A stretch of DNA of 55,824 nucleotides from Escherichia virus TH28. The position numbers were made by a program, and so were the translations under genes. The stretch is taken from the sequence record MT446402.1. One strand, given 5' to 3'. The notes under the pieces were generated by a model, which did not search any database, was not told the origin of the DNA, and saw only the letters and a list, made by a program, of their open reading frames with translations. This document shows, piece by piece, positions 1 through 55,824 of the stretch (position 1 is the stretch's first letter; the number at the start of each line of letters is the position of its first letter).

Positions 1-53
1 TTCGGGGAGATTGCGATATCAACCTGAACTAAATCAGAAATTGGGATTGACAT
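1..53 (-). CDS. tail sheath protein, N-terminal fragment cut by window edge (copy A)
   Basis: Reverse translation of 1-53 gives MSIPISDLVQVDIAISP, the N-terminus of the 482-aa ORF at 50677..52125. Confidence 0.4.
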   Translation of the reverse strand, partial: MSIPISDLVQVDIAISP

Positions 54-56
54 TTA

Positions 57-575
57 TTAAACCTTTTTGGTTGTGATAAGTGTATTACCATCATAGAAGT
101 TGCCACCAACATATGCGCCAGACATGACTCCGATAGGACTCAAATCTTCACGAATAATATTGAATTGCATTCTAACCGCTTGGCGAACTTCCCAATTGGT
201 TTCCATTTGTATGGTGGCAAGATTTAAAGGTTCTTTACCAAGAGCAGCAAACTTCTCCTGCTTCAATTTGGCTTGAACATCGGGACGGTAAAACGAATTA
301 TCAAACTTGATAAATTCATCACCCTCACGAGAAAACATTATTGCAAATGTCAGAATACGAACACCACGAGTACGGAATATCTCTTCGCCATTAATGGTTA
401 CTATTCTGTTCTCGTCAAAACCTGGGTTGGTGCTTGATAAACATTTGATTGCAGCATACTCACCATGGGGTCGGGGAGCGTTAATCTGCATGTTGTATGT
501 AAATTGTGGGATGCCCACACATACATCTACAATCTCTTTCATGGATTGTAGTTCTTCAAGTCTAATATCCATCAC
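57..575 (-). CDS. head-tail joining / tail completion protein (copy A)
   Basis: 172-aa ORF between capsid genes and sheath; near-identical paralogue at 52128..52646. Confidence 0.4.
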   Translation of the reverse strand: MMDIRLEELQSMKEIVDVCVGIPQFTYNMQINAPRPHGEYAAIKCLSSTNPGFDENRIVTINGEEIFRTRGVRILTFAIMFSREGDEFIKFDNSFYRPDVQAKLKQEKFAALGKEPLNLATIQMETNWEVRQAVRMQFNIIREDLSPIGVMSGAYVGGNFYDGNTLITTKKV

Positions 576-988
576 TTCTCCAGTACACGAGCGGCAATTA
601 CAGAGAAGAATCCGGCATCTTCATAATCGTTTATTGCTATAACTTTATACTGAATGCCATAAACAGTGATGATTGATTTCATCGGCATTTCAGTACGACT
701 ATGAATCTTCATAAATGCTGGCTGACGTTCACCAACATCAGTTGCTTTAAGCTGTTGACCAGCTACACCCGAATCCCTGTCACCATATGCAATGGGAGTA
801 CAGCGGAACTTCTTCGGAGGTGCCCAAGAGTCTTCCACCCAATTATTAAGATTGTCATAATGACCTTCTATATATACTGCAAGGGTAGGACGACCAGTGG
901 TTGTGTATTTGTTGAAAGCTAAGCGTTGATTAATCAAAACTGGAACCCAGGACTTAACCTCGGCCCAGCAAATGCCATGCGCCGCCAT
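572..988 (-). CDS. head-tail connector region protein (copy A)
   Basis: 138-aa ORF in structural block; paralogue at 52643..53059 with divergent N-terminus. Confidence 0.4.
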   Translation of the reverse strand: MAAHGICWAEVKSWVPVLINQRLAFNKYTTTGRPTLAVYIEGHYDNLNNWVEDSWAPPKKFRCTPIAYGDRDSGVAGQQLKATDVGERQPAFMKIHSRTEMPMKSIITVYGIQYKVIAINDYEDAGFFSVIAARVLEK

Positions 989-1323
989 TGCAAATAACGT
1001 TGACCGTACACGGTTGACATGAAATCAGCTTCGATATATGGAATAGTCGAAATGATTCGGTCGCTGAACTCTACCTGTACATCGTCCACATCGGTACGAC
1101 TTACAGGCATAGCTGGCATTGCGGCATCACCAGGCATTATGTCGTCAATTGTTGAAGACCAATGCGCGACAAGTGATGCCATAGCTGGGTCATAAAACCC
1201 ACACCAACGCGATTCGATTGTACCCATCACAAGTTTTGCATCTTCAACTAAGATATCAAAACGACCTTGGGTCATGTCAGCCATAGCCGGATAACGTTTC
1301 ACCAAATCGGTCAGTGTAATCAT
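934..1323 (-). CDS. head-tail connector region protein (copy A)
   Basis: 129-aa ORF; paralogue at 53005..53394. Confidence 0.4.
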   Translation of the reverse strand: MITLTDLVKRYPAMADMTQGRFDILVEDAKLVMGTIESRWCGFYDPAMASLVAHWSSTIDDIMPGDAAMPAMPVSRTDVDDVQVEFSDRIISTIPYIEADFMSTVYGQRYLQWRRMAFAGPRLSPGFQF

Positions 1324-1763
1324 TATGCCAACTTATCGTAGAGAGCCAGTTTAACATCTTCCGGCATACCCTTGACGTCAACCCCATTCTTAACAAGGAT
1401 AGCATCAATATCAGGCATACCAACTTTCACGCGTTCAACAATGGAAAGAGAGCCAGCTTTGATTGCTTCTTTGACCAGGTTGACTTTACGAGTTTTACCA
1501 GTGCTGTAATACTCCTTGATGACCAGAGCTTCTTTACCAGTCTTAACAGAAGCGCCGATATTCTCGTCATCAAGCTGAACTACTTCTTCGCGCAGTTCTT
1601 CAACTTCCGTCATGGACTCCGTAAGAGACTTGTAAACTTCATCGTCGATTTCTACAGTTGCGCCACCAGGAACATGAATAAAGTCCAGCTCAGATTTGCC
1701 AGACTTCCCTTTCTTATAGAAGAAGAATTGAAGGTTGCGGGATTCGTTGTTCTTAATCTGCAT
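1323..1763 (-). CDS. head-tail connector region protein (copy A)
   Basis: 146-aa ORF; paralogue at 53395..53835 with many substitutions. Confidence 0.4.
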   Translation of the reverse strand: MQIKNNESRNLQFFFYKKGKSGKSELDFIHVPGGATVEIDDEVYKSLTESMTEVEELREEVVQLDDENIGASVKTGKEALVIKEYYSTGKTRKVNLVKEAIKAGSLSIVERVKVGMPDIDAILVKNGVDVKGMPEDVKLALYDKLA

Positions 1764-1810
1764 TACTATTTCTCTTAAGTTGTGGGCGAGAATAGTCCCG
1801 CCCTGTTTTA

Positions 1811-2818
1811 TTAGATGCCGGAGTTGATGGAGATTGCTGCCGGGTACATCGTTTGGAAGCCAGCGAAACGACCACGGCCAGGTACTTCATAAATCAGGCC
1901 ATGAAGCTGTACTGGTTGCCAGGTCAGCGGCAGAGGCTCACGCAGACGGAAAGTACGGTTGCCCATTGCGTTGCGGCAAACAACTACGAAGCAATCAGAA
2001 CCAGCATTGCCATGACCTTTGATTGCGTTCAGACCCTTGATTTTGTCGCGGGAGTTGATGAACTGGTTGTTGGCAATGAAGAACTGACCAATCGTCTTAT
2101 CAGACTGTTCAGAACGTGCGGTGTTGAAGATGTACTGCTCATGCTCAACAGGCATCCAGATTTCATCAGGGCGCATGATTTTCAGAGTAGAGGCATACAT
2201 TGCAGACACAGCAGCAGTCAGGTCGGCGATAACTTCGGTCGGAGTCTTCTCGGTCCACTTAGTAGAACCGCCAGCACCCTGAGCAACAGTTGCTTTGGTA
2301 ATGTCTGGGTTTTCGAAGAAGCCAACGAAGCCGTTAGCCTGGTCGCCGTACCATGCAGCAGAGTTTACATACTGCTCGTAACCACGAATCGCAGCATTTG
2401 CTTTACGAGTTTCCAGCGGCAGACCAGTTACAGCAGCAGATGCAACTTCGTCAATGTCGTAGTCGAATGCAGTACCAACAGACTTAACTGTTACGCTGTA
2501 TTCTTTACCAGAAATGCTAGACTTAGGCAGGTCAGTTGCACGGGCGTTAATCACCTGAGCTTTACCAACATGGTTGTAAGAACGGTAGGTCAGAGTGTTT
2601 ACGCCAGCACCGCCAGTGGTGTCCACGCCGAAAGCAGCACGCGCTTCCAGTTCAGGGTACAGGGTGTCGTAAGTTTGAGCTTCAATGAACTCAAGCTGGC
2701 GTTGAAAGAATACTGCGTCGTCATCGTTCAGGACAACAGTGCCAGAATCCTGGATACGAGTGATGGCGTCGTTCAGTTCAAATTCAGAACCGTCAGCCAG
2801 TTTAATCATCTTAGGCAT
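1811..2818 (-). CDS. major capsid protein (copy A)
   Basis: 335-aa ORF downstream of portal, protease/scaffold and decoration genes; size fits an HK97-fold capsid protein; paralogue at 53879..54886. Confidence 0.55.
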   Translation of the reverse strand: MPKMIKLADGSEFELNDAITRIQDSGTVVLNDDDAVFFQRQLEFIEAQTYDTLYPELEARAAFGVDTTGGAGVNTLTYRSYNHVGKAQVINARATDLPKSSISGKEYSVTVKSVGTAFDYDIDEVASAAVTGLPLETRKANAAIRGYEQYVNSAAWYGDQANGFVGFFENPDITKATVAQGAGGSTKWTEKTPTEVIADLTAAVSAMYASTLKIMRPDEIWMPVEHEQYIFNTARSEQSDKTIGQFFIANNQFINSRDKIKGLNAIKGHGNAGSDCFVVVCRNAMGNRTFRLREPLPLTWQPVQLHGLIYEVPGRGRFAGFQTMYPAAISINSGI

Positions 2819-2858
2819 TGTGATGTAATTCCATTATGTTGGCATATTGCCATTAAAT

Positions 2859-3203
2859 TTATGCTGTCCACACTTTAGACAGAGATGTACCTGCAACAGA
2901 CGTCCCGTAGGAGTCCTCAATTGTGCAGTTTACAGAGAAAGTTTTGCCAACCTGGTCGGCTGGAGTGGTTCCAGTAATGTGGGCGCGATTTACCGCGTCA
3001 TTTACCAGAGATAACCCACCAGCCCCTTCGGTTTCCATAGCAAACTTATAAATATAACTTCCATCATCTGCTTCTACCACTGCGGCAGGGTCAGTACGGA
3101 TGTAAAAGTCTACAGCTTCACCAGCAGTCAGTACAGCACCGATAGTGTTGCTCCACCCGCTTGTACCATTTGCAGAGTATTGCGTCTGACCGACGGAAGT
3201 CAA
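2859..3203 (-). CDS. Ig-like (Big_2-type) domain protein, probable capsid decoration (copy A)
   Basis: 114-aa Thr/Val/Ala/Gly-rich beta-type sequence between decoration and capsid genes; counterpart 54931..55182 has a different sequence. Confidence 0.4.
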   Translation of the reverse strand: MTSVGQTQYSANGTSGWSNTIGAVLTAGEAVDFYIRTDPAAVVEADDGSYIYKFAMETEGAGGLSLVNDAVNRAHITGTTPADQVGKTFSVNCTIEDSYGTSVAGTSLSKVWTA

Positions 3204-3220
3204 TTTAGCCTTCGGTGTGG

Positions 3221-3691
3221 TTACGCCTTTGGGAGTACGTTAATCATTACTGGAACAACATCACCAGCAGCCGCCGGATAGCGAAGTGCAGTCAGGTTTG
3301 TAGCAGCAGTGTAGGTGCCATCAACGCCACCAAATTGACCAGTGGCAGATACGCCAATGTTCTTGTCAGTGATTGCAGTAACCAGTTTAACCATGATTGG
3401 GCCAGACAGCATACGCCCAGAGGCCAGCCAGCTTTGATTGCAACAGTGCCGTCACCAGGACGGTTGCGATTCGATGTTAATCTGGCGCATAGTAATGCCC
3501 AGAACAGTGCCGTCGGCTTCAATACCAGGCTTAACCTGATTAGAAGCAGTACCCTGAACAACAGCTAAACCAAAGTTAGCCATTTCAGCTTCAGCATTGA
3601 AAGTCAGGCGCTGAGAGTTAGTGGTAGCCAGGCCATATTGCTCACCCGCATATGCTGCACCAGTATTAATAGACCAATCTTGCTTTGGCAT
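3221..3691 (-). pseudogene. head decoration-like protein, disrupted copy (copy A)
   Basis: Intact 157-aa homologue at 55224..55697; here a 2-nt and a 1-nt deletion relative to copy B create an out-of-frame stretch with an in-frame TGA at 3452-3454. Confidence 0.5.
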
Positions 3692-3700
3692 TGTCTTACC

Positions 3701-4942
3701 TTATAAAGAGTTGAAGCGTTCTAAACGACGTTTGTTAGCTTCTTCGGAAATAGAAACTTTAGGCTTACGAGCTTCTGAATCTTTCTTAGCAGAGAATTGC
3801 ATAGATTGGTTCAGTGCATCGCCCAAAGTAATGGAATCACAATCTTCAAGTGCTGCATCGAAACGAGCAGAGATATAATCTTCACTCTTATCGCTGAAAT
3901 CCTTGTCATGCAATTTATTAACTACAGCCAACTTAACTTCTGAATCGGACTTGCCGGAGAAATCAAGACTGGAGAATTCGTCGCCAAGACGGGCCACATC
4001 AATGAGAAGTGCTGTACGAGCAACAACACGTTTGTCTACCTCAGCCTGAATGGCTTCATCGGATAGTCGTGCAGTTTCTGCATCAGCAAGTTTCTGCTCA
4101 AGGGTGCTAATCTTGTCAAGCGCCGCATCACGCTCTGCTTCAACAACATCAAAGGTTGCCTTATCGACAATGGAAATCTCTTCACCAGAGTCACCAATGC
4201 GAGTAGTCTGAGCACGACCACGAACAACAATTGCAGCATGGTTAGGGATAATACGAACTTTGTCGAAGTCTGCATCGGCATCTTCTGCAACAGCCAGTTC
4301 TGCATTATGCCCCAGGGAGATTTGGTCAACGCCAGAATCAACTAATCGAATGGCTTGCTCGTCATTCAAAACGATTGATGCAGCCAAGAAAGAACCGTCT
4401 GCAATTGGACGACCTTCGATGAACCCTTTCTGGAGTTCTTTGTTGTTCTTGATATTGACGTCATCTTTTGGATGGCCGATAGTAACCGGAATTGAGCGAC
4501 AACCTTCGATGGTTGCTTCATCAAATAATACTTCCGGTTTGGTGCGAACACGGCAAACAGATTCTGGGTCTAGATGTTTTGCAATCTCACCAAGTTCTTT
4601 CGCTTTGTACAGCATAATGCCAGTACGAGCAATGGTGCATTCTGCAATCATTTCGCCAGAGTCGCGTAAACGACGGGTCGTCAGAGTAGCCTTGTCGGTT
4701 AACAAAACTACTTCATTCACAGTATCTTCGTCGTTAAGCTGGACCAGGTTTTGGCTTTGCTTCACTTGCGTTACCCTTTTGGATGTTAGGAGGTTTAGGA
4801 TTTGGCTTACCAAGGTCACAAGTTCCGAACACGCCCGAATGGAACATGACTTCATTTGCAACTTGCGTAGTAATGGTGCCGTTGTTAACCAGTAGGTCAA
4901 CAGCAAATGCCAAATCTTTAGCTCGCTTCGCTTTCTCAACAT
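3701..4942 (-). CDS. prohead protease / scaffold-like protein (true start probably near 4740)
   Basis: Acidic, helix-rich 413-aa ORF directly after portal; position typical of protease-scaffold fusions; overlaps portal ORF so an internal start is likely. Confidence 0.45.
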   Translation of the reverse strand: MLRKRSELKIWHLLLTYWLTTAPLLRKLQMKSCSIRACSELVTLVSQILNLLTSKRVTQVKQSQNLVQLNDEDTVNEVVLLTDKATLTTRRLRDSGEMIAECTIARTGIMLYKAKELGEIAKHLDPESVCRVRTKPEVLFDEATIEGCRSIPVTIGHPKDDVNIKNNKELQKGFIEGRPIADGSFLAASIVLNDEQAIRLVDSGVDQISLGHNAELAVAEDADADFDKVRIIPNHAAIVVRGRAQTTRIGDSGEEISIVDKATFDVVEAERDAALDKISTLEQKLADAETARLSDEAIQAEVDKRVVARTALLIDVARLGDEFSSLDFSGKSDSEVKLAVVNKLHDKDFSDKSEDYISARFDAALEDCDSITLGDALNQSMQFSAKKDSEARKPKVSISEEANKRRLERFNSL

Positions 4943-13442: not shown

Positions 13443-15376
13443 TAGTGAATCTCCGCGTAGTTATCACCGAACTGCACATCACATGCACAATCACGGTTAA
13501 GTTTAAGTTCTTTGTTGGTACGTTCCATTGCCTCATTAAGCAAGTCCGTCCACAAATCACGGAAACCTTTCTTAACTTGGAGAATCAATTCATCGTGGAA
13601 TTGTCCAGACAGAAGCGGGTCACAGCCCCAACGTTCGTTACAAATTGCAATAATGTTGTTACACCAAATGTCAAACACATATGCACCAGTGCCCTGACAC
13701 AATGTTGAGAAGCGGTCTTTCTCTGTACGCAGCGAATACCAGAATTTGTTTACCGGATTCTGTTGCCACATTTGACCATCAACTGTGATGACTTTAGTGT
13801 TAGCAGCAATCTCTTTGATTGACCAGTTCAAGTCCCAATATGCTTTATGCAGACGTGCAGCCGTTGATTGGTCACAGTCAGCAGAACGGGCAACAGTTGG
13901 AATACCAGCACCATACTGACAAGCATAGTTAGTGGTCTTAAACATTGGACGTTGCTTACATTTCTGTATGCCATCCTTGTGGTCTTGAGATTCTTTCTCA
14001 GTGATGAATCCACCGATTACGCCAATTGCAAGGTGAGCATCGTAGTCCGGTGCCAACTGCTTCTTAACATATTCAGGGTCGTACATCCATTGGAAGTGGT
14101 GCTTACAGCGGTCTTCCAGTGAACACAAGTCAGAGCCTAACTGTTCGTAATCTTCACGCCACGCTTCCAACATTGAACGCAGTTCTTCACCGCCAAATAC
14201 ACGAATAGAAGGGAGGTTAACAAGTTCGCGATGTTTAAGGCGTAAAGTATTGGTAAGGCCACCACATCGCGCAGTAAGGAACCCATCGGAATCGACGTCA
14301 CGAAGGAAGCCATTAACAACAGACAGACGGTGTTTATACACGCCCATCCCAATAAGATGTTGAATACCAGAGTCGGGGTTTCTTTCTGCCAGCTTATGCA
14401 AGCTCGGACAAATTTCGGGATTGCCATCTTCATCCTTGACCGTGATTTGAGGAATCTGGCGAGTCTCGCCTGTCTCTTTGTTACGGTCAAACTTAAATGT
14501 TTCTGGAACCCAGCCAAGGCTGAATAACCAATCTTTGATTTGTACGTGAGAACCAGCGTTAGGTTCTTTGTAACCCTTGAGCACCTTAATGTGCAAGTCT
14601 GGGTCTTTCCAGTCCAAACCGTTTGCATCACAGACGGCTTTCCACTTCATACCAGTTGAGGACAATTGTCCATTCATCTTATGGCATTTGGCAGGACGCG
14701 ACTTTATGACATATTCGGGAACACGAGGCATTGATGCTTCCAACGCATCCGTCTTCTCTTTAATCATTGGTTCAAGTTTGGCCTTAAATGCCAATGCTTT
14801 CTCAATGTTCAGCTTCCAGCGAGTGCGTTGTTGAATAACTTGTTGACGCGCTTTGGTCATAAGGTATTCAATAAAACGCTTAACTTCGCCAGGAGTTTTA
14901 TAAATCTTGAGGAGTTGAATATATTGCTGTTCCCACAGCTTTAGCTGAATCTTACAGTCTTCCATCACACGATGGTTATATTCTTCCTGAGTTTGATTTT
15001 CCCAATCATCAATGACTGGTTTCGGCACACCAAACTCTTCTCCATAACCTTCTAAGCCGTGCTTAACACGACGAGGTTGCAGATACCAACTGATAAACAA
15101 AGTATCAATTAGTGTACATTTTGAAACGTCGTAACCCAAGAACTTTAATGCTTCAAAGTCAAAGGTTGCGCCATTGTGCATAATTAATGTTGGACCTGAG
15201 TCCAGGAATGTTTGAATGGATTTACGGTCGGTCCACTCTGTTACAACTTCTTCACGGGTTTGAACATCAATGTGTCCAATGTTGTGAAGACGTGGGGCAG
15301 CTTGTTTCCTCATCTGCTCCAACAGTCCAGTTGTTTCAATGTCACTGGCATACATTCTTTCCCAAGGATACAACAC
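13442..15376 (-). CDS. DNA polymerase, family A, with 3'-5' exonuclease domain
   Basis: Exo I motif DIETTG at N-terminus; motif B R..K...NY..YG; motif C HDE. Confidence 0.85.
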   Translation of the reverse strand: MLYPWERMYASDIETTGLLEQMRKQAAPRLHNIGHIDVQTREEVVTEWTDRKSIQTFLDSGPTLIMHNGATFDFEALKFLGYDVSKCTLIDTLFISWYLQPRRVKHGLEGYGEEFGVPKPVIDDWENQTQEEYNHRVMEDCKIQLKLWEQQYIQLLKIYKTPGEVKRFIEYLMTKARQQVIQQRTRWKLNIEKALAFKAKLEPMIKEKTDALEASMPRVPEYVIKSRPAKCHKMNGQLSSTGMKWKAVCDANGLDWKDPDLHIKVLKGYKEPNAGSHVQIKDWLFSLGWVPETFKFDRNKETGETRQIPQITVKDEDGNPEICPSLHKLAERNPDSGIQHLIGMGVYKHRLSVVNGFLRDVDSDGFLTARCGGLTNTLRLKHRELVNLPSIRVFGGEELRSMLEAWREDYEQLGSDLCSLEDRCKHHFQWMYDPEYVKKQLAPDYDAHLAIGVIGGFITEKESQDHKDGIQKCKQRPMFKTTNYACQYGAGIPTVARSADCDQSTAARLHKAYWDLNWSIKEIAANTKVITVDGQMWQQNPVNKFWYSLRTEKDRFSTLCQGTGAYVFDIWCNNIIAICNERWGCDPLLSGQFHDELILQVKKGFRDLWTDLLNEAMERTNKELKLNRDCACDVQFGDNYAEIH

Positions 15377-19379: not shown

Positions 19380-19622
19380 TTAGATGGCGCACGCACCACT
19401 TGAACAGTCGTTATCACCAGCACCAGGAACGATTGCTTCTTCGTCCTGCTTCTTCTTGAGTTCTTCGATTGCTTCTTCGGCAGCACCGAAGTCTAGGTTA
19501 TCAAGTGCATCAAAATCCATGAGGACTCCAGTATTGCGGTTATTGGAATGATTGCCAATGTAAGAGTCGAACTTACATAACACCCCGTCGAGTGTCGTCT
19601 TCCCATTTAGACGAATTGGCAT
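19380..19622 (-). CDS. hypothetical acidic protein (internal start of ORF 19380..19658)
   Basis: Annotated ORF start would overlap the tRNA-like element; Met at 19622 avoids overlap. Confidence 0.35.
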   Translation of the reverse strand: MPIRLNGKTTLDGVLCKFDSYIGNHSNNRNTGVLMDFDALDNLDFGAAEEAIEELKKKQDEEAIVPGAGDNDCSSGACAI

Positions 19623-19628
19623 TAAGGG

Positions 19629-19721
19629 TGGACGAGGTTGGGTTCGAACCAACGACACATCTGTCGAACAGATTGCTCTACCTGACTAAGCTCTGGAGCA
19701 GACCTTCTGAGCTACTCGTCC
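19629..19721 (-). tRNA. tRNA-like element, 93 nt, with extra sequence in the D region
   Basis: Minus strand: 7-bp acceptor stem GGACGAG/CTCGTCC, U8-A9, D-stem halves GCTC..GAGC, T-arm GTTGG-TTCGAAC-CCAAC, discriminator A; about 21 extra nt between the D-stem halves; possible anticodon UCG. Confidence 0.4.
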
Positions 19722-20592
19722 AAAATTGGGTGGGTTTTGGTAACGCAGGTTTTCCCGAACTGCGAGGCTTGTAGAATCAGTGAGCCGCCTGTTTGGTATC
19801 TTCGGCCTGCCGTGGATTGATGGTCCCGACTCACTTCATCTCAGGTACGAGGCACTACTTTGCGAGTGCAAGCAGGTGTTGAACCCAAGTACCAACAGGC
19901 AACCTAATTTATTCCACCGTTGTGGAAACCATTGGTTAGAGCAGTTTATTTCCATGCTCAGGGCAATTCACTTTAGGGCGAATTAGGTTATACAGTGCAG
20001 CTTCGAAGTCGCTGCCACAGGCTTGAGATTCCTGTGTGGAGGGAAATCCAAAGGAGCACTTCCTCAAGGAGTTACGTTTCACATTGGCATAGCTTCTCAC
20101 ACTAAACCAATTGAAGACATTCCAGTGTGCTCGTCCGTCCTCCGGAAATATCCAACTGCATAATTAAGTTTGTACTCTGTCACATCCCTACGCGCACTGA
20201 GGGACTTAAGTCTGCATTACATCGCAGAATACAAATTAATTATTGCTCCGATTTATTAATCACATCTCGAAGCCACAATGCGCCAAATTTGGTTACATGG
20301 GATTGGAAGACCACGGAGAGAACTTAAATTTAATTAAGCTGCAACTCGCATTTCAGAATCATTTGCATTTATTTTAAATGAATAAAACAGCCGCATGATA
20401 ACGAATGAAAACTACTTCAATGAACACTCTTGTCGGGGCCACGAGATTGGGCATCGGCCTACCTCCCAACTCTAATCACAAGAATGCTCATTGAAGCCCA
20501 CTCACTCTGGAATGGGTTCAAGGCAGCACCGGACAACTTCCAGTGCACGCCAGATCGATTTAGCTTAGTCTCTCAAGTTTGCCATCGGCAAC

Positions 20593-21007: not shown

Positions 21008-21024
21008 TTCACATCCAATTAATG
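21008..21024 (-). promoter_or_regulatory. conserved 17-bp motif (minus strand CATTAATTGGATGTGAA)
   Basis: One of 7 copies of CATTAGTTGGATGTGAA-like motif in gene orientation; 77 nt upstream of 20931 start. Confidence 0.45.
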
Positions 21025-21054
21025 TGTCAGGACTGCTCTGATTTAACAAACAAC

Positions 21055-22964: not shown

Positions 22965-22981
22965 TTCAATTCCAACTAATG
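22965..22981 (-). promoter_or_regulatory. conserved 17-bp motif copy
   Basis: Plus strand TTCAATTCCAACTAATG; part of a roughly 20-bp direct repeat with 23105-23121. Confidence 0.4.
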
Positions 22982-23050
22982 TTTCAGAATTATTCCAATA
23001 TTCCAAACAAAAAGAATAATAAGAATAAATTAAATAAATGAAGAAAGTGC

Positions 23051-23104: not shown

Positions 23105-23121
23105 ATCAAATCCCACTAATG
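23105..23121 (-). promoter_or_regulatory. conserved 17-bp motif copy
   Basis: Plus strand ATCAAATCCCACTAATG, directly downstream of the plus-strand sigma70-like promoter. Confidence 0.4.
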
Positions 23122-23191
23122 TTTCAGACTAAAGCCGAAGGCCAATGCGAGTACAAAACCCGCTTGGCACTTCGAAGAAACCCGCCTGGAA

Positions 23192-27026: not shown

Positions 27027-27043
27027 CTCACATCCAACTAATG
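27027..27043 (-). promoter_or_regulatory. conserved 17-bp motif copy
   Basis: Plus strand CTCACATCCAACTAATG; 73 nt upstream of 26954 start. Confidence 0.45.
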
Positions 27044-27202
27044 TTGAATTAATCAGGAACACTCAATGAATGCTCCTTGTTAATTTAACGCGCCAGTTTA
27101 TATTCCTGCTTGTAATAGCAGCAGGTTGGCAAAGCCTATAACAATCGTAATTATAACAACGCTAATAGTAAGTGTCAGTATTAGGTATTTAATATTCAAT
27201 CC

Positions 27203-30270: not shown

Positions 30271-30287
30271 TTCACATACAACTAATG
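30271..30287 (-). promoter_or_regulatory. conserved 17-bp motif copy
   Basis: Plus strand TTCACATACAACTAATG. Confidence 0.4.
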
Positions 30288-30339
30288 ATAAATGAACATG
30301 CTTAATTGCAACTAACTCATCTGCCAAATAGACGAATTT

Positions 30340-31164
30340 TGTCACAATTAAACATGCGTCATTAATTACAGGTTTACTCCCACCTTGAATGTATTTGGCA
30401 CATTAAGATTGGAGCAAGCAGGTACGGAAAACCGACCATGTACAGCATAATAAAACTAATTAAATAAAGGGTTTTATCCCAATATTGTCACAATATTTAC
30501 ATGCGATGATAAAGCCTTCGCTTGGCTGGAAGCCAGTATTCATGCGGGTTGCAAGAATATTGGGTCAATACTGATACAGCTATTACATGTGAAATTGGCA
30601 CAAATACTGTTACAAAATTAACATGCCGGATTGGTAGACAATTGTATCTTCGAGGTGATTAGTCCTCTAACAATTCTGCCACATTCTAACATGCCAATTT
30701 GTAGCAATATTTACATGCCATACTGTGACGCAATTGTCACAATATTTGTTGCTCAAAATCGGGGCGGGCTACGGGATTAGTTTCGCGGCTTTGCTCCGAC
30801 TCTTCTCTTCTTTCGAATTAAGATAGAAAGAAAGAAGCATGTCCAAAAGTTCCAGTCTTGCCAAAGTTATCTCCCGGCTTGTGGGTGGGCCTTTATAATA
30901 GGAGATGGAGCAATATTGTCGCAATTGAACATGCTTTAGTTGAAGAACAGTTTCGAATGATAATCCTACTTCACACATGGTTGCTGGAACTTTGTCTGGC
31001 CAAAGACAGGGAGTTCAATGATTGCCACATCATTACAACGCTGTGTGTTTAGTTGACATGCTGAAATGTTTCTAGAATGATTTCAACATGACATGCGGAA
31101 TACTTCTCCGTATTCTGTTACTTCACATCCAACTAATGTCGAATATTGAAACAATATTACATGC
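30340..31164. repeat. array of at least 8 same-orientation copies of a roughly 20-bp motif (plus strand ATTGTCACAATATTTACATGC)
   Basis: Copies at 30340-30357, 30484-30504, 30608-30626, 30677-30694, 30700-30718, 30733-30752, 30915-30934, 31150-31164 plus partial copies; irregular spacing; immediately downstream of RNAP gene. Confidence 0.7.
31122..31138 (-). promoter_or_regulatory. conserved 17-bp motif copy
   Basis: Plus strand TTCACATCCAACTAATG. Confidence 0.4.
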
Positions 31165-33432: not shown

Positions 33433-33449
33433 ATCACAACCAACTAATG
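33433..33449 (-). promoter_or_regulatory. conserved 17-bp motif copy
   Basis: Plus strand ATCACAACCAACTAATG; 63 nt upstream of RNAP start. Confidence 0.45.
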
Positions 33450-33499
33450 GTAAGGCTAGCTCGTTACAACAGCGTGCTCTGATTGCCTTTGACCTTGAC

Positions 33500-50676: not shown

Positions 50677-52125
50677 TTACTGAATGAAGTTGCCAGAGAT
50701 TACAGCACCCTGGATTGCACCGGAACCGATAGCAATAAAGGAAGTACCTTCCCAAATACGTTCACCCTTCTGCGACTGCAAGAGTTCTAACGGAGTAGAA
50801 ATAACTTTGTAGCCTTCTGGATAGAAGACGCCTTCGTTATCATAGCCAGGGGCAATGAGGCCGTTAGTCTTAGCGAGTTCGAGCGCCAGGGTTACTTGCT
50901 GGTTAACCATTGCTACACCAGTGTCCGTCCAAGGAATCTTGGTAGTGGAGGTGTAGAACAAGTTGAACACGTTCAGTCGAACTTTCTGAGTCAGCCATTC
51001 AACACCTTGTACGGAGTCGAACCATGTGCCGTCAGCCATACGACCGTTGTAGAACATTACGTTGCCAGCAACAGAAATGAATGCGTTACCACCACAAGAA
51101 AGCAGCGCACTTACCTGCCCAGAAGACAGGTCAGCAGTGGCGATACCTGGACCTTTCTTGTATGCCAGAATAAGAACAGAGTTTGCAACGTTAAAGTTAA
51201 CAGTTGATGCACGACCCAGGATAGAAATTTCCGGATATTCATCACCATTCGCAGAAGCATCGTAAACACACAGAGTGTTACGCAGGTTCTGGTTCTTAGC
51301 ACGACGGAAGCTGTTATCAGTGCCGTTGATAAGAATGTTCTTGTCGTTATCACCCCAGCCAAATACTTTGCTGGATGCTTCACACCACTTCGCCACAGAC
51401 ATTTGGTTGTCTACTGGAGAGGTTTTGCCACGATACTGGCGGTCAAGGCCCACATAGAAGAAGTTGAATGGAGCATCTGCAATATTAGACAAGTCGGAAG
51501 AAATGGATAGCTCGTTCTTACCAGCAACAATAACTGCGCTGTCAGAAGATTGCAGTTTCAGTACTTCACCAACTTTACCACCAACGTTGCTGATAGTTGC
51601 GTTGATGCCAGTTGCAGAAGTGGTCAGCTTGAACTTGCCAGCTTCCTGAGTAACAGTTACGCCAGCACCAACAGAAGATAGTGCAGTAGTTACTAGAGTT
51701 GCAACTTCTTCGAAGTCAGCAGCAGCAGAGAAATCAATCGGGTCAGTAACATACTGAACACCGCTAACACTTAACTGCATGGTTGCAGCAGTTTCCAGCT
51801 TAATGGTTGCCAATACAGCAGCAGTTGCAGCAGTAACAGTGGCAGGAGTTGCTGGAGTCAAAGTATCGTACTTGATAGCACCAACCAGGAAAGTCTTCGG
51901 AGTTGGCTTCTGCGAGTACCAAGAGGTAGCAGCTTTAGCAATCTCACCACCAGGGAAGTCTGCGAGAACTTCTTTCAAACTGGTATAGGAACGAACCGGA
52001 TATACATCAACGGTCGGTACAAACTCTTTGCTCATAAAGAGCAATGGCCCAAAACCATCGGTCGCAATGGCGTTCGGGGAGATTGCGATATCAACCTGAA
52101 CTAAATCAGAAATTGGGATTGACAT
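50677..52125 (-). CDS. tail sheath protein
   Basis: 482 aa immediately upstream of tube gene; size and position fit Mu/P2-type sheath. Confidence 0.5.
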   Translation of the reverse strand: MSIPISDLVQVDIAISPNAIATDGFGPLLFMSKEFVPTVDVYPVRSYTSLKEVLADFPGGEIAKAATSWYSQKPTPKTFLVGAIKYDTLTPATPATVTAATAAVLATIKLETAATMQLSVSGVQYVTDPIDFSAAADFEEVATLVTTALSSVGAGVTVTQEAGKFKLTTSATGINATISNVGGKVGEVLKLQSSDSAVIVAGKNELSISSDLSNIADAPFNFFYVGLDRQYRGKTSPVDNQMSVAKWCEASSKVFGWGDNDKNILINGTDNSFRRAKNQNLRNTLCVYDASANGDEYPEISILGRASTVNFNVANSVLILAYKKGPGIATADLSSGQVSALLSCGGNAFISVAGNVMFYNGRMADGTWFDSVQGVEWLTQKVRLNVFNLFYTSTTKIPWTDTGVAMVNQQVTLALELAKTNGLIAPGYDNEGVFYPEGYKVISTPLELLQSQKGERIWEGTSFIAIGSGAIQGAVISGNFIQ

Positions 52126-52127
52126 TA

Positions 52128-52646
52128 TTAAACCTTTTTGGTTGTGATAAGTGTATTACCATCATAGAAGTTGCCACCAACATATGCGCCAGACATGACT
52201 CCGATAGGACTCAAATCTTCACGAATAACATTGAATTGCATTTTAACCGCTTGGCGAACTTCCCAATTGGTTTCCATTTGTATGGTGGCAAGATTTAAAG
52301 GTTCTTTACCAAGAGCAGCAAACTTCTCCTGCTTCAATTTGGCTTGAACATCGGGACGGTAAAACGAATTATCAAACTTGATAAATTCATCACCCTCACG
52401 AGAAAACATTATTGCAAATGTCAGAATACGAACACCACGAGTACGGAATATCTCTTCGCCATTAATGGTTACTATTCTGTTCTCGTCAAAACCTGGGTTG
52501 GTGCTTGATAAACATTTGATTGCAGCATACTCACCATGGGGTCGGGGAGCGTTAATCTGCATGTTGTATGTAAATTGTGGGATGCCCACACATACATCTA
52601 CAATCTCTTTCATGGATTGTAGTTCTTCAAGTCTAATATCCATCAC
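52128..52646 (-). CDS. head-tail joining / tail completion protein (copy B)
   Basis: 172 aa; 2 substitutions relative to 57..575. Confidence 0.45.
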   Translation of the reverse strand: MMDIRLEELQSMKEIVDVCVGIPQFTYNMQINAPRPHGEYAAIKCLSSTNPGFDENRIVTINGEEIFRTRGVRILTFAIMFSREGDEFIKFDNSFYRPDVQAKLKQEKFAALGKEPLNLATIQMETNWEVRQAVKMQFNVIREDLSPIGVMSGAYVGGNFYDGNTLITTKKV

Positions 52647-53059
52647 TTCTCCAGTACGCGAGCGGCAATCACGGAGAAGAACCCAGCATCTTCATAATCG
52701 TTTATTGCTATAACTTTATACTGAATGCCGTAAACAGTGATAATGGATTTCATAGGCATCTTAGTACGACTATGAATCTTCATGAATGCTGGCTGACGTT
52801 CGCCAACATCAGTCGCTTTAAGCTGTTGACCAGCTACACCTGAATCCCTGTCTCCATATGCAATGGGAGTACAGCGGAACTTCTTCGGAGGTGCCCAGGA
52901 ATCTTCCACCCAGTTATTAAGATTGTCGTAATAACCTTCTATATAAACTGCAATGGTGGGTCGGTTTGTGGTTGTGTATCTGTTAAATGCTCGACGTTGA
53001 TTTATCACATCTGCCACCCTGGAGAAATTCGAGGGCCAGCAAAAGCCATACGTCGCCAT
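52643..53059 (-). CDS. head-tail connector region protein (copy B)
   Basis: 138 aa; paralogue of 572..988. Confidence 0.4.
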   Translation of the reverse strand: MATYGFCWPSNFSRVADVINQRRAFNRYTTTNRPTIAVYIEGYYDNLNNWVEDSWAPPKKFRCTPIAYGDRDSGVAGQQLKATDVGERQPAFMKIHSRTKMPMKSIITVYGIQYKVIAINDYEDAGFFSVIAARVLEK

Positions 53060-53394
53060 TGCAAATAACGTTGCCCATAAACGGTAGACATGAGGTCAGC
53101 TTCAACATAGGGAATTGTTGAAATGATTCGGTCGCTAAACTCTACCTGCACATCGTCAACATCTGTACGACTTACAGGTATAGATGGCATAGCAGCATCC
53201 CCAGGCAGTAGGTCGTCAATTGTTGAAGACCAATGCGCAATAAGGGATGCCATTGCTGGGTCATAAAACCCACACCAACGCGATTCGATTGTTCCCATCA
53301 TCAGTTTTGCATCTTCAACTAAGATTTCAAAACGGTCTTGGGTCATGTCAGCCATTGCAGGATAACGTTTAACCAAATCGGTTAGTGTTATCAT
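53005..53394 (-). CDS. head-tail connector region protein (copy B)
   Basis: 129 aa; paralogue of 934..1323. Confidence 0.4.
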   Translation of the reverse strand: MITLTDLVKRYPAMADMTQDRFEILVEDAKLMMGTIESRWCGFYDPAMASLIAHWSSTIDDLLPGDAAMPSIPVSRTDVDDVQVEFSDRIISTIPYVEADLMSTVYGQRYLQWRRMAFAGPRISPGWQM

Positions 53395-53835
53395 TTACGC
53401 CAACTTATCGTAGAGGGCCAGTTTAGCTTCTTCCGGCATATCTTTGATGTTCACGCCGTTAGCAACCAACACTTTATCAATGTCAGGCATACCAACTTTC
53501 ACGCGTTCAACAATAGACAGACTGCCAGCTTTGATAGCTTCTTTGACCAGGTTTACTTTACGAGTTTTACCCGTGGTGTAATATTCCTTAATCACGAGTG
53601 CTTCTTTGCCAGACTTAACGTCAGCACCAATGTTGGAGTCGTCCAGCTTAACTTCTTCTTCACGCATCACTTCAACTTCAGTGACAGAAGAGGTAATTGC
53701 TTTATACACTTCATCATCAATTTCAACAGTTGCACCGCCAGGAATGTGTACAAAATCCAGTACAGGTTTGCCAGATTTATCCTTCTTATAGAAGAAGAAT
53801 TGGAGGTTGCGAGTTTCGTTGTTCTTAAGCTGCAT
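53395..53835 (-). CDS. head-tail connector region protein (copy B)
   Basis: 146 aa; paralogue of 1323..1763. Confidence 0.4.
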   Translation of the reverse strand: MQLKNNETRNLQFFFYKKDKSGKPVLDFVHIPGGATVEIDDEVYKAITSSVTEVEVMREEEVKLDDSNIGADVKSGKEALVIKEYYTTGKTRKVNLVKEAIKAGSLSIVERVKVGMPDIDKVLVANGVNIKDMPEEAKLALYDKLA

Positions 53836-53878
53836 TACATTTCTCTTAAATTAGGCGAGATTTCTCCCGCCATCTGGG

Positions 53879-54886
53879 TTAAATACCGGAGTTGATGGAG
53901 ATTGCTGCCGGGTACATTGCCTGGAAGCCAGCGAAACGGCCACGACCAGGTACTTCATAAACCAGACCATGCAGCTGAACTGGTTGCCAAGTTAACGGCA
54001 GCGGTTCACGCAGACGGAAGGTGCGGTTGCCCATAGCTTCACGGCACACAACTACGAAGCAATCTGCGCCAGAAGCACCGTGACCTTTGATTGCATTAAG
54101 GCCCTTGATTTTGTCACGGGAATTAATGAACTGGTTGTTGTCAATGAAGAACTGACCGATAGTCTTATCAGACTGCTCAGAACGTGCGGTGTTGAAGATG
54201 TACTGCTCATGCTCAACAGGCATCCAGATTTCAGAAGGACGCATGATTTTCAGAGTAGATGCGTACATTGCAGACACAGCAGTGGTCAGGTCAGCAATAA
54301 CTTCGGTCGGAGTCTTCTCGTTCCACTTGGTAGAACTGCCAGCGCCCTGAGCAACAGTTGCTTTGGTAACGTCTGGGTTTTCGAAGAAGCCAACAAAGCC
54401 GTTAGCCTGGTCGCCGTACCATGCAGCGGAGTTTACATACTGCTCGTAACCACGAATCGCAGCATTTGCTTTACGAGTTTCCAGCGGCAGACCAGTTACA
54501 GCAGCAGATGCAACTTCGTCAATGTCATAGTCGAATGCAGTACCAACAGACTTAACTGTTACGCTGTATTCTTTACCAGAAATGCTGGACTTCGGCAGGT
54601 CGGTTGCACGGGCGTTGATTACCTGAGCTTTACCAACATGGTTGTATGAACGGTAGGTCAGCGTGTTAACACCAGCGCCGCCAGTAGTATCAACACCGAA
54701 AGCAGCACGAGCTTCCAGTTCAGGATACAGGGTGTCGTAAGTTTGAGCTTCAATGAACTCAAGCTGACGTTGAAAGAACACTGCGTCGTCGTCATTCAAA
54801 ACAACGGTGCCAGAGTCCTGGATACGGGTGATGGCATCATTCAGTTCAAATTCAGAACCGTCGGCCAGTTTAATCATCTTTGGCAT
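53879..54886 (-). CDS. major capsid protein (copy B)
   Basis: 335 aa; paralogue of 1811..2818 with few substitutions. Confidence 0.55.
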   Translation of the reverse strand: MPKMIKLADGSEFELNDAITRIQDSGTVVLNDDDAVFFQRQLEFIEAQTYDTLYPELEARAAFGVDTTGGAGVNTLTYRSYNHVGKAQVINARATDLPKSSISGKEYSVTVKSVGTAFDYDIDEVASAAVTGLPLETRKANAAIRGYEQYVNSAAWYGDQANGFVGFFENPDVTKATVAQGAGSSTKWNEKTPTEVIADLTTAVSAMYASTLKIMRPSEIWMPVEHEQYIFNTARSEQSDKTIGQFFIDNNQFINSRDKIKGLNAIKGHGASGADCFVVVCREAMGNRTFRLREPLPLTWQPVQLHGLVYEVPGRGRFAGFQAMYPAAISINSGI

Positions 54887-54930
54887 TAAATTTATTCCAT
54901 TAGGCGCAGATTATTCTACGCCAATTAAAC

Positions 54931-55182
54931 TTAAGGATGCGTAATGGTGATTGCTTTAGTAGCAGTTACACCAGGAGCAGTCTTATGAGTTGCTTTGATT
55001 GTTGCAGAAGTCGCAGTACCAATCGTCGCAGTTGCAACAGTTACAGTACCATTGGCCGCCACAGTTACTCCAGTGACCGCTGGGTCAACAGTGAAGTTGT
55101 AGTCACTTGCAACAGAGTTTGCAAACGTAAACAGTTTATCAACAGTTACGGTAGCATTTACAGTTGAAGCATCAGCAGTCAC
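54931..55182 (-). CDS. Ig-like (Big_2-type) domain protein (copy B, different sequence from copy A)
   Basis: 83 aa, Thr/Val/Ala-rich beta-strand repeats (VTVAANGTVTVATATIGTAT). Confidence 0.4.
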   Translation of the reverse strand: MTADASTVNATVTVDKLFTFANSVASDYNFTVDPAVTGVTVAANGTVTVATATIGTATSATIKATHKTAPGVTATKAITITHP

Positions 55183-55223
55183 AGCCGCCGCTACCGCAGT
55201 AACGGTCGGTGCTGGAGGTGGCG

Positions 55224-55697
55224 TTACGACTTTGGGACTACGTTAATCATGACCGGAACAACATCACCAGCAGCAGCCGGATAGCGAAGTGCAGTCAGGT
55301 TGGTTGCCTTAGTATAGCCAGCGCCAACACCACCAAATTGACCAGTGGCAGACACGCCAATGTTCTTGTCAGTGATTGCAGTAACCAGTTTAACCATGAT
55401 TGGGCCAGACAGCATAACGCCCAGAGGCCAGCCAGCTTTGATTGCAACAGTGCCGTCACCAGGACGAGTTGCGGATTCGATGTTAATCTGGCGCATAGTA
55501 ATGCCCAGAACAGTGCCGTCGGCTTCAATACCAGGCTTAACCTGATTAGAAGCAGTACCCTGAACAACAGCTAAACCAAAGTTAGCCATTTCAGCTTCAG
55601 CATTGAAAGTCAGGCGCTGAGAGTTAGTGGTAGCCAGGCCATATTGCTCACCCGCATATGCTGCACCAGTATTAATAGACCAATCTTGCTTTGGCAT
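55224..55697 (-). CDS. head decoration-like protein (copy B, intact)
   Basis: 157-aa ORF; intact version of the split gene at 3221..3691. Confidence 0.45.
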   Translation of the reverse strand: MPKQDWSINTGAAYAGEQYGLATTNSQRLTFNAEAEMANFGLAVVQGTASNQVKPGIEADGTVLGITMRQINIESATRPGDGTVAIKAGWPLGVMLSGPIMVKLVTAITDKNIGVSATGQFGGVGAGYTKATNLTALRYPAAAGDVVPVMINVVPKS

Positions 55698-55706
55698 TGT
55701 CTTACC

Positions 55707-55824
55707 TTATAAAGAGTTGAAGCGTTCTAAACGACGTTTGTTAGCTTCTTCGGAAATAGAAACTTTAGGCTTACGAGCTTCTGAATCTTTCTTAGCAGAG
55801 AATTGCATAGATTGGTTCAGTGCA
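55707..55824 (-). CDS. prohead protease / scaffold-like protein, C-terminal fragment cut by window edge (copy B)
   Basis: 55697-55824 is identical to 3691-3818, which covers the 3' end of ORF 3701..4942. Confidence 0.4.
   Translation of the reverse strand, partial: ALNQSMQFSAKKDSEARKPKVSISEEANKRRLERFNSL

Follow-up and report, generated by a model that had tools for sequence, protein, structure and literature searches.

The tRNA genes of phages are usually explained by codon supply or, in more recent work, by the replacement of host tRNAs that defence nucleases have cut, and here we describe a gene that fits neither explanation cleanly: a 93-nt tRNA-like cloverleaf on the minus strand, at 19629-19721, of Escherichia virus TH28 (MT446402.1), whose sequence of 55,824 nucleotides, the window in what follows, is a complete coliphage genome of the Chaseviridae (Cleopatravirinae) with terminal repeats. 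Among RNAs to which this element can be compared, species 1 and 2 of the T4 tRNA cluster (rnaC and rnaD) are stable RNAs that are not tRNAs, are thought to be processed together with the tRNAs, are dispensable and have no known function; at about 120-140 nt they are longer than the element, and are likened to it by description. Bacterial YrlA Y RNAs contain a tRNA-like module, do not decode and act through proteins that recognise tRNAs; the element differs from them in its free, tRNA-like ends. The tRNA-like domain of tmRNA is likewise a faithful module of acceptor stem, T arm and elbow that binds tRNA-recognising proteins and in which the anticodon arm is replaced or missing, but the element has A3-U70 in place of the G3-U70 of that domain and keeps both a D stem and a 15-nt anticodon-like hairpin. 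Such a domain can stand alone, since mycobacteriophage DS6A carries it as a separate gene (PMC4131195). With archaeal tRNA genes, for example those of Aeropyrum, in which non-canonical introns of the bulge-helix-bulge type lie in the D arm (PMC3241643), the element shares a short D-region insert in an otherwise canonical tRNA gene; unlike them, it belongs to a phage of a bacterial host without a splicing endonuclease, and its anticodon arm is abnormal as well. Phage class I tRNAs, in particular the tRNA-Arg(UCU) of T1-like phages and of T4, match the element in acceptor stem, D stem, variable loop, T arm and tertiary nucleotides, and differ from it in that the element has a D loop expanded by 20-21 nt, no nucleotides 32 and 38, no A20, an unconserved triplet and sub-threshold results with Rfam and ARAGORN. 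By its sequence, the element appears to descend from such a class I phage tRNA, tRNA-Arg being narrowly the best match.

In this element, the Carltongylesvirus group of the Chaseviridae carries a functional tRNA-like RNA gene that selection maintains. We give a probability of about one half to the reading that its product is a processed, non-decoding tRNA mimic that would keep its insert, a reading we favour because the anticodon arm is 2 nt short, because the loop changes at roughly the synonymous rate and because the homologous or analogous genes that occupy this locus in other Chaseviridae lack an anticodon arm altogether. A sequence-only reading of the window had considered a tRNA with an insertion, a decaying tRNA pseudogene and a tRNA-like structure put to some other use; the first is right as a description of the anatomy, the second is contradicted by the conservation data, and the third is the one we prefer, short of proof.

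The gene is already known as an annotation oddity and present in GenBank, but had never been resolved. The phiEcoM-GJ1 record (EF460875) lists at 14456-14550 a ‘tRNA-Arg, codon recognized: CGA; may contain an intron’, the ST32 genome was described with a tRNA-Arg of 95 bp ‘without an intron’ (PMC6266442), a paper on Yersinia phages gives a ‘tRNA for arginine or leucine’ (PMC8762354) and the Mangalitsa genome was reported with 0 tRNAs (PMC6753284). In the tRNAscan-derived annotation of Ecp_YSF and Pel53 it becomes a 71-nt tRNA-Arg that starts within the insert and has a poor acceptor stem, while ARAGORN proposes tRNA-Leu(cag) in phiEcoM-GJ1, ST32 and Bp10 and tRNA-Ser(gct) in SA91KD, so that gene finders conflict between no call, Arg, Leu and Ser. 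Through almost twenty years of such inconsistency, genome papers have both over- and under-counted the tRNAs of Chaseviridae. What is new here is the resolved anatomy, the purifying selection on the tRNA body, the free-running loop and the placement of the gene among oversized, non-decoding tRNA-like genes beside a tmRNA-like RNA.

Anatomy of the tRNA-like gene

Read along the minus strand from 19721 to 19629, the element runs GGACGAG UA GCUC AGAAGGUCUGCUCCAGAGCUUAGUCAGGUA GAGC A AUCUG UUCGA CAGAU GUGUC GUUGG UUCGAAC CCAAC CUCGUCC A, with G1 at 19721 and the discriminator A73 at 19629. About 40 phage records of the phiEcoM-GJ1/ST32 (Carltongylesvirus) group contain it at 90-100% identity; over the two stretches compared, the window is 100% identical to Escherichia viruses TH23 and TH33. 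The upper half of the molecule, comprising acceptor stem, T arm, the elbow nucleotides of the D and T loops, the core triples and an encoded 3' CC, is canonical. The acceptor 5' strand GGACGAG (19715-19721), invariant in the 26 genomes whose single alignment supplies all counts of variation given below, pairs at 7/7 Watson-Crick positions with 19630-19636, and the 3' strand CUCGUCC is followed by the discriminator, which is G in some relatives, and by the encoded CC (19627-19636 in all). The T arm GUUGG-UUCGAAC-CCAAC (19637-19653) combines a 5-bp stem with a 7-nt loop of the UUCRANY type and has a single variable site, C or U at position 60. U8-A9 (19713-19714) directly precedes the first copy of the D-stem 5' half, GCUC (19709-19712), which pairs 4/4 with GAGC (19675-19678) in all relatives, and the variable loop GUGUC (19654-19658), which supplies G46 and C48, is invariant, with C48 able to pair with G15. 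Parsed as a class I tRNA, with the D stem G10-C13/G22-C25, the element offers U8-A14, A9-A23-U12, G15-C48, G18G19, A26/G44, G46, G53-C61 and U54-A58, and none of the 24 proposed pairs is lost in any of 10 distinct relatives. The perfect acceptor stem, U8-A9, the D-stem halves and the T arm had all been picked out in the sequence-only reading, as had the 93-nt length, and its estimate of about 30 nt between the D-stem halves agrees with the 30 nt found here.

That distance exceeds the canonical D-loop range of about 7-11 nt by the presence of an insert, AAGGUCUGCUCCAGAGCUUAG, of 21 nt (19686-19706), which occurs once in the window and so gave no sign of being a repeated or mobile sequence there. 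It exists in two forms, the 21-nt form of the window type and a 20-nt form of the phiEcoM-GJ1 type, which differ at six sites. Each form holds a small hairpin, GCU-CCAG-AGC in the window (19690-19699) and GCA-UUG-UGC in the phiEcoM-GJ1 type, and the one compensatory change between them, U-A to A-U, is weak support for the hairpin because it represents a single evolutionary event. The D-arm 5' half is present twice, as GCUCAG at element positions 10-15 and as GCUUAG (GCUCAG in phiEcoM-GJ1) at positions 31-36. The second D-stem copy, GCUU (19688-19691; GCUC in phiEcoM-GJ1), is followed by a textbook D loop, AGUCAGGUA (19679-19687), so that the region can also be parsed as a 23-nt linker and then a normal D arm. 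In every sequence having those columns either copy pairs with GAGC, the second with a change from U-G to C-G, and the position of the insert within the D region is therefore ambiguous. Whichever 17-25 nt are removed in silico from the D region, ARAGORN calls a clean tRNA-Arg(tcg), and it is in this sense that the element is a tRNA with an insertion. Free-energy folding, of single sequences and of the alignment, gave D-region pairings outside the cloverleaf, which were dropped for want of covariation support.

The lower half is abnormal, and is unconstrained exactly where a decoder would be most constrained. The equivalent of the anticodon arm, AUCUG-UUCGA-CAGAU (19659-19673, loop 19664-19668), has an invariant stem and is 15 nt long where 17 is usual. 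It can form 5 bp closed by a 5-nt loop, or else 4 bp with the 7-nt loop GUUCGAC and a possible anticodon UCG, the fold that the sequence-only reading had put forward and that we also find. The 7-nt-loop fold amounts to an A.G opposition plus 4 bp, with a loop of the form G-U-NNN-R-C and no nucleotide 26, and alignment with the tRNA-Arg(UCU) of a T1-like phage shows that it is nucleotides 32 and 38 that the element lacks. A canonical 5-bp stem, 7-nt loop and conserved anticodon are thus not found together.

These departures are reflected in the behaviour of gene finders. ARAGORN makes no call for the element in the window, and Rfam at its gathering thresholds finds nothing there. Run permissively over the window, Rfam returns weak tmRNA matches and one sub-threshold tRNA match only, the latter (RF00005) placing model positions 9-63 on 19637-19692 with 25.6 bits against a gathering score of 29, at E=0.006 in 700 nt and 0.46 in the whole window; this alignment uses the second GCUU/GAGC D arm and reports the anticodon loop as 2 nt short. 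The absence of a covariance-model call had been named in the sequence-only reading as grounds for giving up a tRNA-like element, and while in form that absence is what was observed, the conservation data described in the next section override it and show that the likeness to a tRNA goes beyond chance. A covariance model built from the relatives scores the element at 122 bits, and its best matches outside the clade are phage tRNA-Arg(UCU) genes beside a tmRNA-like RNA, at 47.8 bits. The best of all, the tRNA-Arg(tct) of Klebsiella phage VLCpiS13b, has 57 of 72 positions in common with the element after removal of the insert, and it too lies just downstream of a tmRNA-like RNA. A close relative without the interruption was not found in the phage collection, where the de-inserted query gave just generic tRNA similarity of 75-80%, nor in IMG/VR, metagenomes, GTDB genomes or E. 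coli genomes; the pattern scans of IMG/VR, metagenomes and GTDB recovered the same phage clade or nothing, the metagenome pattern being fixed to a UUCGA loop and hence blind to loop variants. The element itself, sought as a possible acquisition from the host, has no match in 5426 E. coli genomes.

A conserved body and a free-running loop

For the analysis of variation, the tRNA body was defined as all stems, the variable loop, the D-arm nucleotides and the T loop, with the discriminator left out. Only 2 of its 66 sites vary, against 23 of the 47 third codon positions in the adjacent open reading frame (ORF) of 46 aa (Fisher p=4.6e-9), and 30 of the 100 nt upstream of the element are variable. 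No stem is broken in any of the 26 genomes, none of the 35 sites at element positions 8-15, 37-53 and 59-68 (D arm, anticodon stem and variable loop) varies, and the CC after the discriminator is kept in 26/26 genomes, the next base being A or C. The 5-nt loop, in contrast to the body, is variable at 4 of its 5 sites (p=7.5e-5), and the insert at 6 of 21, with its middle varying freely. Strong purifying selection thus acts on the body, and not on the loop triplet or the middle of the insert.

The loop reads UUCGA in most of the phages, UAAGA in PYps16N, FXie-2024a and TH26, UCGAA in TH29 and UUAGG in Bp7 and JL1; taken as G-U-NNN-R-C, these correspond to the anticodons UCG, AAG, CGA and UAG. 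Each of the three rarer variants is 2-3 bases from UUCGA and sits in its own flank haplotype, giving at least three lineages, and stem and body stay identical throughout. The discriminator, A or G among the relatives, is G in all three AAG variants. Selection therefore maintains the shape of a tRNA while the part that would read codons has been shortened and left free to change, and the extra D-loop hairpin is maintained throughout the phage genus. Maintenance does not amount to necessity: the element is absent from PYps3T, PYps4T and PYps16T, whose flanks are otherwise near-identical (the PYps3T junction, marked here by a slash, reads ...CCCAC/ATCCTTAAC...), and these phages were reported to lack exactly this gene (PMC8762354). 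From its absence in PYps3T we conclude that the gene is dispensable.

Other phages show, downstream of the tmRNA-like RNA, similar combinations of a faithful upper half and an aberrant lower half. With a covariance model from the 93-nt element and a direct scan for T-arm/acceptor closures, long tRNA-like genes measuring 84-128 nt were identified both in further Chaseviridae, where those at the locus of the element span 84-112 nt, and in additional phage families. They combine a perfect 7-bp acceptor stem and a canonical T arm, in several cases followed by CC or CCA, with a lower half of extra or replaced hairpins; none has a normal anticodon arm, and none has G3-U70. In Erwinia phage Y2, the gene is 112 nt long, with an acceptor stem that is entirely different and still perfect, a 48-nt hairpin where the anticodon arm would be and a T arm identical to that of the element with U at position 60, as in most relatives of the element. 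Faunus has four tRNA-like genes in a row, of 84, 98, 104 and 106 nt, 4HA13 has one of 98 nt, with CC or CCA after the versions of these two phages, and other phage families have versions of 109-128 nt, one of them with a GAAA tetraloop arm. In the sequences collected, such genes lie at L036 893-1004, L157 1602-1685, 1964-2061, 2067-2170 and 2247-2352, L156 2450-2547, L073 2766-2874, L100 8941-9067 and L119 12158-12269. A tRNA-like family of 127 nt, TGTGGTGAAGCTCAATGGCGAGCT...CGCCACAA, also recurs in several contigs.

Competing explanations of the element

If the element is a non-decoding mimic, RNase P would cut the RNA from the phage transcript at G1, and the 3' end would be trimmed or repaired to N73-CCA as in a tRNA. 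The insert would stay in the mature RNA as an extra surface hairpin, since neither host nor phage has a known means to remove it; among the annotations of flopper, a related genome, there is no RNA ligase or splicing endonuclease. The RNA would then not read codons and would engage a tRNA-binding partner through its upper half, possibly manipulating the machinery of translation or of tRNA surveillance, for example by serving a tRNA-directed nuclease, tRNA-modification enzyme or ribosome-rescue factor as decoy or cofactor. Were this so, the element would point to a so far unrecognised tRNA-binding target in the conflict between phage and host.

What weighs against a mimic is in part what would speak for the main rival, a genuine, non-canonical decoding tRNA, which would be a tRNA-Arg(UCG) in most of the phages, switched to AAG, CGA or UAG elsewhere, with a D-loop expansion tolerated outside the elbow; we regard this as possible and doubtful. 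A U at the U33 position and a purine at 37 are kept in all four loop variants, and the UAG variant has G at 37, as readers of Leu CUN codons do, a pattern compatible with a functioning anticodon loop, provided that the closing G-C pair opens. By Watson-Crick pairing, UCG and AAG, the commonest two of the triplets, would recognise the codons CGA and CUU, which account for 15% of Arg codons and 23% of Leu codons in the phage and are both commoner there than in E. coli; neither a UCG nor an AAG tRNA is known in E. coli, in keeping with codon supply and not with mimicry of a host tRNA. Since the loop is no more variable than synonymous sites, no arms race need be invoked to account for it, and the homology to the Y2 gene rests mainly on the 17-nt T arm and on synteny. 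A decoder would also explain the conserved CC tail, the tRNA-Arg(UCU) identity of the best matches outside the clade and the tRNA-Arg(tcg) that ARAGORN calls, with exactly the A.G plus 4-bp arm, once the insert is removed, and tRNA-Arg is the name used in GenBank and in two papers (PMC6266442). The anticodon is, however, normally the most constrained part of a tRNA, and here it varies at the pace of synonymous sites while the body is frozen, even where the triplet switches to another amino-acid family. The main determinant for ArgRS, A20, is absent; the AAG variants, which would be Leu, all have G73, whereas E. coli LeuRS needs A73; and SerRS needs a long variable arm. Furthermore, G32 and C38 can pair, leaving a 5-nt loop, the Rfam score is sub-threshold, and Chaseviridae relatives at the same locus have no anticodon arm.

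It is also conceivable, and in our judgement unlikely, that the element serves as a processing or stability signal only, a tRNA-shaped punctuation mark for RNase P and RNase Z cleavage of transcripts made by the T7-like RNA polymerase, the excised RNA being functionless. Its site would suit this, in a non-coding stretch of about 1.1 kb just upstream of the conserved 46-aa ORF, as would the pattern by which the parts that RNase P requires (acceptor stem, T arm and 3' CC) are best conserved and loop and insert are free to vary. The D arm, anticodon stem and variable loop are nevertheless invariant as well (0/35), beyond the needs of RNase P recognition, phages without the element keep the same flanking genes, and the row of four such genes in Faunus would be odd for punctuation.

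A tRNA-Arg gene with a short spliced intron is, we think, very unlikely. The GenBank note for phiEcoM-GJ1 raises an intron, removal of 20-21 nt does restore a canonical D arm, GCUC-AGUCAGGUA-GAGC, and the insert evolves faster than the putative exons and keeps a small hairpin. At 21 nt, though, it is too short for the catalytic core of a group I or group II intron, inspection by eye revealed no bulge-helix-bulge motif in the element, and no tRNA splicing endonuclease/ligase pair is known in bacteria or Chaseviridae, in keeping with the flopper annotations. The anticodon arm, moreover, would still be aberrant after removal, and the gene of ST32 was explicitly called intron-less (PMC6266442).

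Barely tenable is a class II tRNA-Leu(CAG), a parse that takes what we read as the D arm for an anticodon arm and the AUCUG hairpin for a long variable arm. ARAGORN does propose a tRNA-Leu(cag) of 95 nt in L006, L008 and L009, the loop GUCAGGU resembles that of E. coli tRNA-Leu(CAG), and a freely varying loop is to be expected on a variable arm. That parse was rejected, as in the ARAGORN drawing of phiEcoM-GJ1 the D stem is paired at 2/4 positions, the anticodon stem has an A.A mismatch and GUGUC (5 nt) is left unpaired after the variable arm, while in SA91KD, where ARAGORN calls Ser(gct), the supposed CAG anticodon is deleted; the window type receives no ARAGORN call, and the class I parse satisfies every tertiary contact. 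Finally, a decaying tRNA pseudogene, to which the failure with ARAGORN and the Rfam threshold, the insertion, the short anticodon arm and the absence from some relatives might point, is ruled out by the contrast between body and third codon positions, with 100% of pairs kept across the alignment.

The surrounding RNA-gene island

In most relatives, the region of some 1.1 kb that holds the element, flanked by small early genes and by the replication module, is non-coding, and the 46-aa ORF follows just downstream. The element belongs to an island of RNA genes with a tmRNA-like RNA and, in the window phage, a second aberrant tRNA-like gene. The latter begins 8 nt downstream of the element (19552-19621, minus strand) and is reported by ARAGORN as tRNA-??? 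with a 2-nt anticodon ‘ac’; it has a 6-bp acceptor stem, good D and T arms, a variable loop of 3 nt and an ‘anticodon’ loop that, at 6 nt, is also undersized, which speaks for the non-decoding reading of the element. It lies within an insertion of about 77 nt confined to TH23/TH33, outside which no relatives of it were found.

The tmRNA-like RNA, to which the weak Rfam tmRNA matches correspond, lies about 500 nt upstream of the element on the same strand (20244-20414, minus strand) and is probably the more important lead of the two. Its tag frame (20334-20366, minus strand), GCA AAU GAU UCU GAA AUG CGA GUU GCA GCU UAA, encodes ANDSEMRVAA*, which matches the E. coli SsrA tag, ANDENYALAA, in length and at both ends. 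Within the genus, the frame shows three substitutions, all at third codon positions, and the sequence directly 5' of GCA diverges, with no in-frame start codon in GJ1, Pel53 or TH26. A strongly covarying hairpin (20296-20315, minus strand) follows the tag, as does a pseudoknot-like helix. Just 5' of the tmRNA-like core, the minus strand at 20416-20495 can form a long imperfect hairpin, CUUCAAUGAGCAUUCUUGU...ACAAGAGUGUUCAUUGAAG, with an Rfam microRNA match at chance level.

The same RNA occurs, unannotated, in Erwinia Chaseviridae and in Felix O1-like, Vi1-like and T1-like phages, usually beside tRNA genes. One pattern scan recovered it in at least 120 IMG/VR contigs, where the tags are almost all of 10 codons (ANDDVVLMAA, ANDDLMLMAA, ANEEMYLAVA, ANDNVFLAVA and others). 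Among 5426 complete E. coli genomes, 656 carry it as well, never annotated and for the most part on plasmids of about 92-120 kb that are non-mobilizable. An in-frame start codon is lacking in 112 of 122 copies, and with its default settings ARAGORN recognises a tmRNA in 1 of 119. We found no paper describing this RNA, whose SsrA-like tag frame makes a link between phage and ribosome rescue directly testable. One Vi1-like phage contig carries, about 1 kb from its tmRNA-like RNA (L101 1118-1331, minus strand), a match to the Salmonella sRNA family STnc100 at 48.7 bits, against a threshold of 47.

No convincing tRNA-like domain was found in the tmRNA-like RNA; ARAGORN makes proposals at relaxed thresholds only, and these are inconsistent and often borrow arms from neighbouring tRNAs. 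Because the RNA appears to have no tRNA-like domain of its own, the oversized tRNA-like genes of Chaseviridae and of several other enterobacterial phage families might conceivably be its acceptor partners, the two forming a split system akin to trans-translation that would act in ribosome tagging or rescue during infection, with the D-loop expansion and the non-anticodon lower half docking the coding RNA or SmpB. We consider this improbable. Synteny alone suggests a functional link between the element and the tmRNA-like RNA: neither the insert nor the whole element shows complementarity to that RNA better than shuffled sequences do, and PYps3T, which lacks the tRNA-like gene, still has the tmRNA-like RNA.

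Three further features of the window may be mentioned. Upstream of the element, a stretch of about 60 nt on the minus strand at 19740-19800, TTCTACAAGCCTCGCAGTTCGGGAAAACCTGCGTTACCAAAA, is almost invariant in the 26 genomes, is separated from the element by a hypervariable spacer and may be a promoter or processing signal. A 22-nt motif, TCACATCCAACTAATGT..., is present on the plus strand in seven copies (21009-21030, 22966-22987, 23106-23127, 27028-27049, 30272-30293, 31123-31144 and 33434-33455), which may be promoters for the phage T7-like RNA polymerase, the copy nearest to the RNA island on its upstream side being that at 21009-21030. The direct terminal repeats of about 3.7 kb (1-3767 and 52073-55824) include segments that are just 79-93% identical between the two ends, which suggests that the window joins slightly different copies of the repeat.

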